DNA of 64,000 nt from Minisyncoccota bacterium. Lineage in GTDB: Bacteria; Patescibacteriota; Minisyncoccia; UBA6257; JAGOQP01. Both the position numbers and the translations under genes were made by a program. The stretch lies in contig JBAZTS010000001.1 of assembly GCA_041661795.1 (NCBI GenBank), positions 39,459-103,458 on the forward strand, given 5' to 3'. The notes under the pieces are model-generated. The model saw only the letters and a list, made by a program, of their open reading frames with translations, was not told the origin of the DNA and did not search any database. Positions 55,683-58,226 of this stretch are shown piece by piece; position 1 is the stretch's first letter; every line of letters starts with the position of its first letter.

Positions 55683-56807
55683 TTAGAAGTTAGCTGTAGC
55701 AGCGTAAGTTAATGTGGCAGAATAACTTCCAGCTTCAGTGTTAGGAGCAATGTTAGCCAAATAACGTAATGAGTAAGTTGTGTTGGCCGATGTTCCAGCA
55801 GAAGAAGCTAACTCATCAGGAAAAGCGGCTGTGTCAAAAGCAAATCCCGCAGCTAAATAAGGAGCGCTGACAGTTCCACTTCCACCAGAAGAGTTGGCTC
55901 TTAGACCAAACTGTTCTGTCCCAACAGCAGAAGCTGTGTTAGAAGGACCAATGGCATTAATTGAATATGTTGAAAATGTAAGAGTAGTTCCTGTGGCAGT
56001 CAAAGTATATCCATTAGCAGCATTGGTGCCAACAATAATATTATGAGATTCTACTTCCGATGCAGAACCAAGAGCATCACCTGTCGCATATCTTGCATTT
56101 GCCGAATCCAAAGTTCCAAAACCAATAGAGACATCAGAAATAGAAAAACTAATTGACTCGGTAACGGCAGCGGTAACAGAAACTTGGTCATCAGGAATAA
56201 TTTGAACAGCTACGTCTCCCGAGTCACCAATAACTCCAGCCACGGCAATTATGTAAGAAGCGGCTACAGTTATATCTGGATTTGTAATTTGTTGATCTCC
56301 AGTTGTTCCGGTTGATGCGTGAGTACCAATTTTTACTCTGACACAAGCGTTAGCGGCAATAGCAGCTACGCCAACTCCATCAGTTGGAGGGGTAAGAGTT
56401 ATTGTGTCTGTTCCGGTAACTACGCCGACTCCCCAATCAGAAGCTGTAGCAGTAGCTGCCAGAACTTCATCGTTGGTATAAGTTGGACTGGTACAGTTCG
56501 CTTGAGCTCCAGCGGAGTGAGCCAAGTCAAGATCGGTATAATCTAAAGAACCAGGAGTTGTAAAAGCAGTTCCCGCTCCTTTATCAAATTCAATTGTAAT
56601 AGTATCGGTTAATTCAGCCGCTCCAGTGGGAGTTCTAAAAACAATTGTGTGATTGGAAGCGGTATTGTCTTTAGACGAAGACATTGTGTCCGACTTGTTT
56701 AACAACGAAGCCGCATAAGCGACATTGATAAAACTTGAAAGACCGCCAAAACCCAAGAGAAAAGCTACTGCCAAAAACAAACTAACTAACTTGTATGACT
56801 TAAACAT
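55683..56807 (-). CDS. secreted Thr/Ala/Gly-rich protein, paralog 1, conserved C-terminal about 150-aa domain ending ...YSATLTYAATANF
   Basis: Sec signal (AYA/AS); shares ISFSISDxxIGFG, EVExHNII, ANGYxxTxxGTTLT, EQFGLR, GTVSAPYLAxGFxFDTAxFPDExAS, TYSxRYLxNIxxNTExGxYSAxLxYxAxAxF with 56925-58226. Confidence 0.55.
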   Translation of the reverse strand: MFKSYKLVSLFLAVAFLLGFGGLSSFINVAYAASLLNKSDTMSSSKDNTASNHTIVFRTPTGAAELTDTITIEFDKGAGTAFTTPGSLDYTDLDLAHSAGAQANCTSPTYTNDEVLAATATASDWGVGVVTGTDTITLTPPTDGVGVAAIAANACVRVKIGTHASTGTTGDQQITNPDITVAASYIIAVAGVIGDSGDVAVQIIPDDQVSVTAAVTESISFSISDVSIGFGTLDSANARYATGDALGSASEVESHNIIVGTNAANGYTLTATGTTLTFSTYSINAIGPSNTASAVGTEQFGLRANSSGGSGTVSAPYLAAGFAFDTAAFPDELASSAGTSANTTYSLRYLANIAPNTEAGSYSATLTYAATANF

Positions 56808-56924
56808 ATTTTTTATTTTTTGAAACGACTATTATTTATTAATTTAAATACAAAAGAGATTTTTATCTCCAATGGTTATATTATATATCATTTAGCATAT
56901 TAAAACCATATAAGTTATCCACAG

Positions 56925-58226
56925 TTAGAATTGTGCAACCGCTGTATAGATTAAAATAGCTGAATAATTACCACCTTCCGTATTATTTGAAATATTACTC
57001 AAATAACGAACAGAATAAGTATTGGCAACGTCATTTCCATTAGAATCCGAAGCAACTTCATCCGGAAAATTAGCCGTATCAAAAACAAATCCCGAAGCCA
57101 GATAAGGAGCACTGACTGTTCCGTCGCCTCCAGAAGTTGTCATCCTTAATCCAAATTGTTCATTTCCAACAGAAGGAGAGGAATTGGTTCCTCCTATAGC
57201 GCTTATAGTTCTTGTCCCGTAAGTAAGAGTTGTTCCATTTATAGTTATTACATATCCATTAGTGGCATTGGTAGAAGCTATAATATTATGAGCTTCAACT
57301 TCCGTGCCGTTTCCGTTTCCGTCTCCCGTGGCATAACTGGAAGCTGAAGATAAAATATTTCCAAAGCCGATTGTGTTATCGGAAATGCTAAAAGAAAGTG
57401 TTTGAGCTCCACTAGCTATAATGGCTTTGGCGTATCTGGTATAAACAAAATCGGTAGGAGAACTGGCATTGGTAACTCTAAAACAATAAATTGCCCCATC
57501 GGTTGCGGCGCTAAGCGCTTGAATGGCATATTCTATTTCAACAAATTGATTACTGGAAACACTCAAAGATCCGGTTTGACTTGTTGTTTCTCTTTGTCCT
57601 CCATTAGGAGATAAAAATAAATTATTGGAATTGCTAACTCCTCCAGTTGAAACAGCAACATTGGTTGTGTCAGATGTATCAGTTAATTGAGAAGAAGACA
57701 TATCAAAGTCTCCTCCCACAGCTCCAATGTCAGTGTAAGAAGCCGAGGAACAATTTCCTCCTTCCAAAGCATATTCCAAACGAAATTGCTGTGAAGTATA
57801 ACTTTTTATGGTTCCACCGGTATTGGCAATTTCCATTCTTAATCTCTTTGCTGTCAGTTTTGGAAAATCTGTAAAGGTTGTGTCTTCCGATCCACCAGTT
57901 GCCGAAGTTGCCACTGATTCATTGCCATCATCATTACGCCAATGAAAATGAGTTTGTTCATAAACGGGTCTTATGGAAATTATTGAGGATGGCAAGTTTC
58001 CTCCTTTTATTAAAAAACTGCTACTAGTTGAAATTCCCGCTCCCACTCCCCCGCTGGTTGCTTTATTTTTGAAAGTAGTTGAGGTTGACGAACCTCCGAT
58101 AAAATCTATTAACTGTCTTACAAAAAAACTAGTGGAGGTAGCGTCCAGAGCTACAACATTATTGGAAAAAATAGAAAAACACAGAATGGTAAAAATGGCG
58201 CTTAATTTTATTATTCTGTTAGTCAT
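56925..58226 (-). CDS. secreted Ser/Thr-rich protein, paralog 2, with the same conserved C-terminal domain ending ...YSAILIYTAVAQF
   Basis: Sec signal peptide; C-terminal domain collinear with paralog 1. Confidence 0.55.
   Translation of the reverse strand: MTNRIIKLSAIFTILCFSIFSNNVVALDATSTSFFVRQLIDFIGGSSTSTTFKNKATSGGVGAGISTSSSFLIKGGNLPSSIISIRPVYEQTHFHWRNDDGNESVATSATGGSEDTTFTDFPKLTAKRLRMEIANTGGTIKSYTSQQFRLEYALEGGNCSSASYTDIGAVGGDFDMSSSQLTDTSDTTNVAVSTGGVSNSNNLFLSPNGGQRETTSQTGSLSVSSNQFVEIEYAIQALSAATDGAIYCFRVTNASSPTDFVYTRYAKAIIASGAQTLSFSISDNTIGFGNILSSASSYATGDGNGNGTEVEAHNIIASTNATNGYVITINGTTLTYGTRTISAIGGTNSSPSVGNEQFGLRMTTSGGDGTVSAPYLASGFVFDTANFPDEVASDSNGNDVANTYSVRYLSNISNNTEGGNYSAILIYTAVAQF

Follow-up and report, generated by a model that had tools for sequence, protein, structure and literature searches.

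Two paralogous proteins of the Pam pilin family and their putative pilus operon in a Minisyncoccota bacterium

Pam, a pilus of the Candidate Phyla Radiation (CPR), has been solved by cryo-electron microscopy (cryo-EM) and is assembled by donor-strand exchange (bioRxiv 10.64898/2026.03.03.709456, Troman et al. 2026). The filaments of Candidatus Mycosynbacter amalyticus were found by cryo-EM to comprise two pilins, PamA and PamB; a Pam pilin consists of a signal peptide, a beta-sandwich N-terminal domain, a linker made of one strand, and a C-terminal domain of truncated immunoglobulin (Ig) fold, which accepts the linker of the neighbouring pilin (bioRxiv 10.64898/2026.03.03.709456). According to the same preprint, the Pam operon encodes two PapD-like chaperones with a C-terminal transmembrane (TM) helix (PamC and PamD), PamT is a tip subunit devoid of the linker, and PamR is an RbmA-like terminator that inserts its N-terminal strand and carries a C-terminal TM helix; an ATP-synthase and CorB neighbourhood is reported for pamA, and the emphasis is on Saccharimonadia and Microgenomatia. 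The present analysis deals with a 64,000-nucleotide stretch of DNA from a Minisyncoccota bacterium (GenBank assembly GCA_041661795.1, contig JBAZTS010000001.1, positions 39,459 to 103,458), hereafter the window, and with two neighbouring genes on it that encode predicted secreted proteins of 374 and 433 amino acids (aa) with a common C-terminal domain (the pair carries the locus tags WC705_00575 and WC705_00580 in a Candidatus Paceibacterota metagenome-assembled genome, MAG). Both proteins are members of the Pam pilin family, and they are probably the shaft pilin and the tip/adhesin subunit of a Pam-type donor-strand pilus, which would be built without an usher or an outer membrane.

Membership of the Pam pilin family

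The two genes and their common domain are located as follows (window coordinates).

56925-58226, minus strand: 433-aa protein, candidate tip/adhesin-class Pam subunit (signal peptide, variable N-terminal module at residues 27-268 and Pam pilin C-terminal domain; no linker donor motif)
56928-57401, minus strand: C-terminal (putative acceptor) domain of the 433-aa protein, residues 276-433, ending ...YSAILIYTAVAQF (delimited by BLASTP and by positions 5-170 of a C-terminal-domain hidden Markov model, HMM)
55683-56807, minus strand: 374-aa protein, candidate shaft (major) Pam-type pilin (NF058581 match, layout of the AlphaFold2 (AF2) model and 563 homologues)
55686-56156, minus strand: C-terminal (putative acceptor) domain of the 374-aa protein, residues 218-374 (delimited by BLASTP, NCBIfam, AF2 and the C-terminal-domain HMM)

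A preliminary description of this DNA had delimited both open reading frames (ORFs) and regarded their products as paralogues with a collinear C-terminal domain. The limits agree exactly, both ORFs being on the minus strand, and BLASTP bears out the paralogy, with 165 aligned residues, of which 59% are identical and 75% positive (E=1e-58; residues 211-374 of the 374-aa protein and 269-433 of the 433-aa protein). All the shared blocks listed at that stage are present, including ISFSISD..IGFG, EQFGLR, GTVSAPYLA and the terminal Y.A.L.Y.A.A.F, while the N-terminal parts of the two proteins gave no significant BLASTP alignment to each other. On inspection, both sequences start with a hydrophobic helix and continue with an AxA-type site, which predicts a Sec signal peptide.

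The common domain had been considered unassignable to any known family. With NCBIfam (release 20), it is recognised by the curated model NF058581 ("CPR_Pam_pilin_C, Pam pilus system pilin subunit"), which scores 73.6 bits with the 374-aa protein and 67.6 bits with the 433-aa protein against a curated cut-off of 55 bits, and which is matched by 91/91 aligned homologues (best E=2e-46). Both proteins thus belong to this family, and of the options originally entertained for them, that of a pilin or fibre subunit is upheld. A confident match to a characterised family had been named beforehand as the outcome that would speak against novelty; such a match is largely what was obtained, with the proviso that the family is itself only months old, having been described in a 2026 preprint. 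Pfam searches with both proteins and the 91 homologues matched nothing (no WxL, TasA, SCPU or Spore_coat_U), and a PDB sequence search with the 374-aa protein gave no match. Nor is the domain a lineage-specific oddity, as had been thought possible: the 374-aa protein has 563 homologues, and relatives of the pilin are encoded on 260 stretches of the GTDB species-genome collection. From the GTDB species genomes, 80 loci were taken for comparison, and HMMs derived from the window proteins were used to classify the ORFs of these loci.

The AF2 model of the 374-aa protein (computed from a 91-sequence alignment) has a mean predicted local distance difference test score (pLDDT) of 91.7. It comprises a helix at residues 3-20, a sandwich at about 33-204 (pLDDT >90), a segment of lower confidence at 201-220 and a short strand at 219-223; the remainder, up to residue 374, is an all-beta domain with its last strand at 366-372. 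As modelled, this is the layout of a Pam pilin. The N-terminal regions, earlier taken to be of low complexity, are conserved modules in both proteins: that of the 374-aa protein, modelled as the beta-sandwich just mentioned, is conserved in hundreds of homologues, and that of the 433-aa protein recurs at E=1e-72 in two other genomes (loci L071 and L062) and as three repeats inside a 2722-aa protein (locus L078).

With its alternating hydrophobic residues ahead of a terminal Phe, the C-terminal motif is similar to the beta-signal of the beta-barrel assembly machinery (BAM), and an outer-membrane beta-signal was the other option first put forward, under which both proteins would be beta-barrel outer-membrane proteins. 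The chance of this is close to nil, since the AF2 model and the fold searches give a soluble Ig-like sandwich and no barrel, the motif also suits the closing strand of a pilin domain, and the host lineage belongs to the CPR. To our knowledge, CPR bacteria are described as monoderm and as lacking BAM.

The linker motif, the C-terminal strand and the tip class

Two segments of the 374-aa protein have to be weighed as the strand that would be donated to a neighbouring subunit.

56163-56192, minus strand: candidate donor (linker) strand DDQVSVTAAV, residues 206-215 (class-specific motif, unstructured in the monomer model)
55686-55724, minus strand: C-terminal amphipathic strand YSATLTYAATANF with terminal Phe (predicted strand 366-372)

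In proteins possessing both the N- and the C-terminal domain (the shaft pilins), the region of the linker follows the consensus ItVnILtDDQV.VtATV.QSLTFSISDNTIGFGT. The pattern [VI]x[VI]x[AG]x[VI] occurs at this position in 74/77 shaft pilins as against 0/56 tip-class proteins. The stretch common to the tip class is limited to QsLTFSISDNTIGFGT, with neither conservation nor hydrophobic alternation at the position of DDQVxVxATV. Because the tip class keeps the former stretch without conserving the latter position, SLTFSISD, the first of the blocks listed in the preliminary description, is assigned by this comparison to the acceptor domain. The linker motif is shaft-specific, recurs at the N-terminus of a dockerin protein encoded in the same cluster and appears in the last strand of domain 1 of a chaperone-like protein (both described below); for these reasons residues 206-215 (DDQVSVTAAV), and not the C-terminal strand, likely form the donated strand. 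The disorder of this segment in the monomer model is as would be expected of such a strand.

In chaperone-usher pilins, which lack the seventh strand, the partner of the incoming donor strand is the C-terminal F strand. By analogy, the C-terminal strand of the window proteins is most likely the groove-lining last strand of the truncated Ig fold, which would pair with the incoming strand, and its invariant terminal aromatic residue, together with the free carboxylate, may act as a docking point for a chaperone. In 169 related proteins drawn from 80+ loci, nothing follows the C-terminal domain, which stops exactly at the final residue. The distinct sequences of the last 16 residues end with Phe in 123 cases and with Tyr in 25, and alternating hydrophobic positions precede this aromatic residue. 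The alternating-hydrophobic strand with a terminal aromatic residue, as first noticed in the window, therefore holds across the whole set.

The function initially proposed for this strand, namely that it is itself donated to the next subunit, is very unlikely. It does account for a strand that is amphipathic, highly conserved and always ended by F or Y, and terminal strands (C- or N-terminal) are indeed donated in some other fibre systems. Nevertheless, the strand is equally conserved in the shaft class and in the tip class, of which the latter would need no donor, and the AF2 monomer places residues 366-372 confidently within their own domain (pLDDT >90). Furthermore, the motif common to the putative terminator N-terminus and the chaperone strand is that of the linker, and it is the inter-domain linker that the solved Pam pilins donate (bioRxiv 10.64898/2026.03.03.709456).

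The genes just upstream of the shaft pilin gene encode the tip-class proteins, which carry the C-terminal domain and vary in length between 185 and 2871 aa. The 433-aa protein combines an acceptor domain and a variable N-terminal module with the lack of a linker strand, and could therefore occupy only the distal end of a fibre, as its tip or adhesin. A second kind of tip-class protein (~317-340 aa) is encoded upstream of the pilin in loci L015, L019, L022, L026, L028 and others; its N-terminal domain is related to that of the shaft pilin, and the place of the linker motif is taken by a conserved segment, ...AYTTKICGTA..., with a Cys. This kind is absent from the window.

The six-gene cluster and its neighbourhood

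On the minus strand, the order of the cluster is 433-aa tip-class gene, 374-aa pilin gene, 334-aa chaperone-like gene, 358-aa dockerin gene, 299-aa gene and 572-aa gene, with gaps of at most 117 nucleotides. In 30/82 related loci, more than for any other architecture, the genes stand in the corresponding six-gene order (tip, pilin, chaperone, dockerin, cohesin, cohesin). Pairwise, the shaft pilin gene is immediately preceded by a tip-class gene in 60/76 evaluable loci, the chaperone gene has a dockerin gene after it in 63/76 evaluable loci, and the dockerin gene a cohesin gene in 53/68 loci. A scan of positions 50400-59400 for promoters and terminators gave nothing above the shuffled expectation. 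No usher family was found among the eight proteins of the cluster region that were scanned, and the features of a sortase-assembled pilin (a C-terminal LPXTG sorting signal and a pilin motif) were not found. Loci of the Doudnabacteria type (L057, L067, L069, L070 and L075, at about 10000-14000) have the order pilin, chaperone, tip-class, chaperone, without dockerin or cohesin genes. This order is nearer to the two-chaperone operon of M. amalyticus and suggests at least two operon types in the family.

The gene following the pilin encodes the candidate chaperone.

54651-55655, minus strand: membrane-anchored two-domain Ig-like protein of 334 aa, PapD/WxLIP-like candidate pilus chaperone and possible counterpart of PamC/PamD
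55188-55235, minus strand: G1-like strand QVSIGGKLGILVLLTV of this protein, residues 141-156 (last strand of domain 1, after a flexible loop)

The window operon thus encodes a PapD-like protein with a C-terminal TM helix. At the G1-like position, 86/95 members of the chaperone-like family carry [VI]x[VI]x[AG]x[VIL], in the form QVS[VI][SG]GKLG[VM]L[IV]LL[ST]V, and a loop of low pLDDT (131-147) precedes the last strand of domain 1 in the model of the 334-aa protein. Judged by its sequence, this strand would correspond in position to the G1 donor strand of PapD-like chaperones.

Several observations link the 334-aa family to the DUF916/WxLIP proteins. One homologue is named "DUF916 domain-containing protein" at NCBI, and Pfam PF06030 (WxLIP_PGBD, formerly DUF916) is weakly matched by 63/95 members (best E=9e-5). 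A tblastn search against plasmids returned five weak matches, of which three fall on actinobacterial genes annotated as DUF916; the family HMM matches those actinobacterial proteins, which pass the Pfam cut-off, at E=3e-18. Taken together, these matches point to the 334-aa family as a distant member of the DUF916/WxLIP superfamily. A search of the PDB with the family profile gave no match and did not reach the WxLIP entry.

The genes of the 374- and 433-aa proteins accordingly adjoin a gene of WxLIP-like layout (DUF916 + DUF3324 + TM). In WxL clusters, a WxLIP is encoded together with two WxL proteins, one small and one large, the latter having an N-terminal binding domain, and AF2 predicts that a DUF916 strand inserts into the WxL domain (PMC10599100). 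The logic of such a cluster is by analogy strikingly parallel to that of a Pam-type cluster, although a link at the level of the pilins is not supported. It is conceivable, then, that the window encodes a surface complex of the WxL type with no filament, in which non-polymerising proteins are held on the wall and membrane by the 334-aa protein. The superfamily membership of the 334-aa protein agrees with this, as do the shared cluster logic (a large variable and a smaller protein with a common C-terminal domain, beside a TM-anchored two-Ig protein; PMC10599100) and the fact that filament formation is a prediction for the window proteins and their homologues alike. The explanation is nonetheless unlikely. 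None of the 91 family members matches Pfam WxL (PF13731) even at E<=1, and Trp is absent from the C-terminal domains of both the 374-aa and the 433-aa protein, so that the defining dual W-x-L motif is lacking. Both proteins, moreover, score above the cut-off of the Pam pilin model, and a shaft-specific linker motif is explained by a polymer but not by a simple anchor. A relationship between the C-terminal domain and the small proteins encoded beside the actinobacterial DUF916 genes was tried and rejected, since hhalign against three of them aligned only the last 16 residues (G.Y..TLT) with a probability of 3.8%.

These actinobacterial loci merit a description of their own. In Cellulosimicrobium, Clavibacter and Nonomuraea replicons (L085 5046-10201, L086 4936-6750 and L088 3893-5754), genes for small secreted proteins (208-214 aa) are followed by a gene for a DUF916 protein with a TM helix, beside LamG or GH43 enzymes. 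The small proteins carry V.V.V.I just past the signal peptide and G.Y.STLTL.LF at the end; on this pattern they look like self-complementing donor-strand subunits, while homology to the Pam C-terminal domain is not supported.

The remaining three genes of the cluster encode a dockerin protein and two membrane proteins.

53555-54631, minus strand: candidate terminator/anchor subunit of 358 aa (signal peptide, N-terminal donor-like strand, Cys-rich module, Gly/Ser linker, Ig domains (Big_6) and C-terminal dockerin)
54524-54544, minus strand: donor-strand-like motif VDIVAIV at the mature N-terminus of the dockerin protein, residues 30-36
52631-53530, minus strand: membrane-anchored cohesin-like protein of 299 aa (signal peptide, cohesin-like domain and C-terminal TM helix)
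50926-52644, minus strand: membrane-anchored cohesin protein of 572 aa (signal peptide, cohesin, Big_13 Ig domains, TM helix and charged cytoplasmic tail)

The 358-aa protein passes the Pfam cut-offs for a type I dockerin (Dockerin_1, 33 bits against 22.9) and for Big_6 (29.1 against 27.6), and the dockerin is found in 54/56 members of its family. The C-terminal-domain HMM finds no Pam C-terminal domain in it. Directly past the signal peptide, the family consensus reads A followed, after the cleavage mark, by ITVEITATVPGCG. The 7-residue pattern V.[VI].A.V occurs within residues 16-75 of 67/74 dockerin-protein orthologues as compared with 32/826 control ORFs (4%), and in the other secreted proteins of the cluster it is present in 1-4 per family. 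A 10-residue shaft-linker matrix that includes the DD pair scores the dockerin-protein N-termini unevenly, and only the 7-residue core is general. An RbmA-like terminator with a C-terminal TM helix, as in PamR, was not found in the cluster; the 358-aa protein, which would fill the equivalent role, ends in the dockerin.

Cohesin (PF00963) is matched by 34/54 N-terminal regions of the 572-aa family (best E=1.4e-9), and the top PDB sequence matches of the cohesin family are cellulosomal cohesins, though weak. An hhalign comparison of the 299-aa and 572-aa families gives a probability of 100% (E=1e-41) and thus a common N-terminal domain; the 572-aa protein scores 39.9 bits with Big_13, and the TM segment of the 299-aa protein is visible in its sequence. 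These assignments suggest a dockerin-cohesin anchoring of the pilus in place of a membrane helix. A literature search turned up no paper in which cohesin-dockerin pairs are connected with a CPR pilus.

The cohesin and dockerin proteins could alternatively form the core of a cellulosome-like or S-layer-like scaffold, unrelated to any pilus, to which the two proteins with the C-terminal domain would be accessory. This is highly improbable, for Pfam and NCBIfam revealed neither an enzyme nor a carbohydrate-binding module among the six genes, the pilin domain scores above the cut-off of a curated pilin model, and the dockerin protein starts with a copy of the pilin linker motif, which ties it to the pilin domain.

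Other genes around the cluster were also considered. Directly upstream of the tip gene and overlapping its start are two mutually overlapping ORFs of 161 and 164 aa (58219-59195, minus strand), each with one N-terminal hydrophobic segment and no family match; having only 2-4 homologues among 80+ related loci, they fall outside the conserved module. A few genes upstream, a 316-aa secreted class A beta-lactamase-like (penicillin-binding-protein-like) protein is encoded (59966-60916, minus strand), which scores far below the beta-lactamase cut-offs; in the related locus L001, the tip gene has a gene for a 319-aa Beta-lactamase2 protein immediately upstream. The 316-aa protein may belong to the conserved surroundings of the cluster, perhaps as an enzyme of wall remodelling. 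Further on, a 531-aa secreted protein rich in Ser, Thr, Ala and Asn (61676-63271, minus strand) has one N-terminal TM/signal segment and no NCBIfam match, and may be another surface protein. ARAGORN reported a "tRNA-Stop" with anticodon tta at 39981-40054 (minus strand). A suppressor tRNA was rejected: read in the canonical register, where a single base separates the D stem from the anticodon stem and the variable loop has 5 nucleotides, the anticodon loop is CTTTTAA, that of tRNA-Lys(UUU), with an A27-A43 mismatch, and the prediction is very probably mis-registered. TAA is the commonest stop codon in the window, ending 34/52 long ORFs. Finally, loci L006-L011 and many others are labelled as uncultured Candidatus Saccharibacteria, Peribacteria, Gammaproteobacteria or Polynucleobacter, and carry the same operon at 45-65% identity to Paceibacterota/Parcubacteria records. 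Since such automatic MAG labels look unreliable, the class-level distribution calls for GTDB taxonomy.

Proposed assembly and comparison with known systems

The analysis shows the family membership, the domain layouts, how the motifs are distributed and that the gene order is conserved. A sequence of assembly steps can be proposed for the cluster, in which strand insertion, the order of subunits, the cohesin-dockerin anchoring and every binding event are what we infer. All parts would be exported by Sec. The exported 374-aa pilin would expose an open groove in its truncated-Ig C-terminal domain, and the groove of each new subunit would first be capped by the G1-like strand of the membrane-anchored 334-aa protein. 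The 433-aa tip-class protein, with a groove and no donor strand, would start the fibre at its distal end; shaft pilins would then join at the base, the linker DDQVSVTAAV of each filling the groove of the previous subunit, so that growth would proceed from tip to base. The 358-aa protein probably ends growth, because it has a donor-like mature N-terminus but no acceptor groove. Its dockerin would bind the cohesins of the two downstream membrane proteins, by which the base of the fibre would be held on the cell.

The following points weigh against this interpretation. The insertion of the linker into a neighbouring groove is deduced from sequence. The PamT equivalog (NF058579) scores 38.1 and 30.7 bits with the two proteins against a cut-off of 240, the alignment being limited to the shared C-terminal domain. 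The matches from fold searches were confined to generic Ig-like adhesins, sortase pilins, cohesins and CsuA/B, in a PDB copy that contains no Pam structure, and the Pam system as a whole comes from one preprint. Among the accessory genes, neither the 334-aa protein nor its neighbours matched the NCBIfam models for Pam chaperones or the terminator, and the 334-aa protein could be a surface anchor of the WxLIP type instead of a chaperone. The VDIVAIV of the window scores -0.9 with the 10-residue shaft-linker matrix and fits the looser 7-residue pattern only; likewise, the window's own 299-aa and 572-aa proteins have no direct Pfam Cohesin match, which is confined to the family.

A more specific proposal goes further than the assignment of a Pam-type shaft pilin and tip subunit. 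The locus might represent a distinct Pam branch of Paceibacteria and related CPR, characterised by hypervariable tip adhesins, a DUF916/WxLIP chaperone and a strand-plugging terminator whose dockerin is moored to cohesins; this remains tentative, and we rate it at somewhat less than an even chance.

Most Paceibacteria, the largest CPR class, are uncultured. A conserved six-gene putative pilus operon with a variable tip subunit provides concrete candidates for host recognition and would extend a pilus class known from one preprint to this class. The dockerin-cohesin pair offers a possible new anchoring of a wall-spanning fibre in a monoderm; if true, it would be a mode of pilus anchoring not described for any pilus class. 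The mechanism of the Gram-positive WxL clusters is still debated. The analysis links Pam chaperones to the DUF916/WxLIP proteins of these clusters, and if the link is true, the WxL/DUF916 clusters of Firmicutes and Actinobacteria would be evolutionary relatives of a strand-complementation machinery.

Four known systems can be compared with the locus. With cellulosomes, it shares a type I dockerin protein encoded beside cell-bound cohesin proteins; the cohesin carriers of the window are TM-anchored, as opposed to attachment by S-layer homology (SLH) domains or sortase, enzymes are absent, and the proposed cargo is the base of a pilus. With the WxL clusters of Firmicutes, in which the WxLIP consists of DUF916, DUF3324 and a TM helix, it shares the same three-part layout in the 334-aa protein (PMC10599100) and the combination of a large variable and a smaller protein with a common C-terminal domain. 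It differs in that the C-terminal domain lacks both W-x-L motifs and a Pfam WxL match, and in that WxL proteins are described as bound to peptidoglycan, not as filaments, with no dockerin or cohesin genes described there.

The likeness to chaperone-usher pili (Pap/Fim, Csu) extends to the use of a truncated Ig-like pilin domain for the complementation and exchange of donor strands (here putative), a PapD-like chaperone of two domains with alternating hydrophobic residues in the last strand of domain 1, a tip adhesin of two domains, one of them a pilin domain, a terminator subunit, and a C-terminal strand of alternating hydrophobic residues with an aromatic residue near its end. In those systems an usher resides in the outer membrane and the donor is an N-terminal extension, whereas here the candidate donor is an internal linker.

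The closest counterpart is the Pam system of M. amalyticus, which has the same C-terminal pilin domain, as attested by the NF058581 scores, and the same succession of Sec signal peptide, N-terminal beta-sandwich, linker and truncated-Ig C-terminal domain. Both systems are restricted to the CPR and have two pilin paralogues with differing N-terminal domains; a TM-anchored two-Ig chaperone-like protein, a linker-less tip subunit and a terminator with an N-terminal strand are likewise common to both, as predicted here from the genes. The preprint mentions neither dockerin, cohesin, WxL or DUF916 nor Paceibacteria or Parcubacteria (bioRxiv 10.64898/2026.03.03.709456). The window differs in its lineage (Paceibacteria/Parcubacteria), in having one chaperone-like gene as against PamC and PamD, in a tip subunit whose N-terminal module is variable and sometimes giant where PamT is bare, and in a candidate terminator that ends in a dockerin, followed by two cohesin membrane proteins, where PamR ends in a TM helix. 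What is new with respect to the preprint is therefore the lineage and the operon variant, comprising a modular tip adhesin, a single WxLIP-like chaperone, a dockerin-bearing candidate terminator and putative cohesin anchors.

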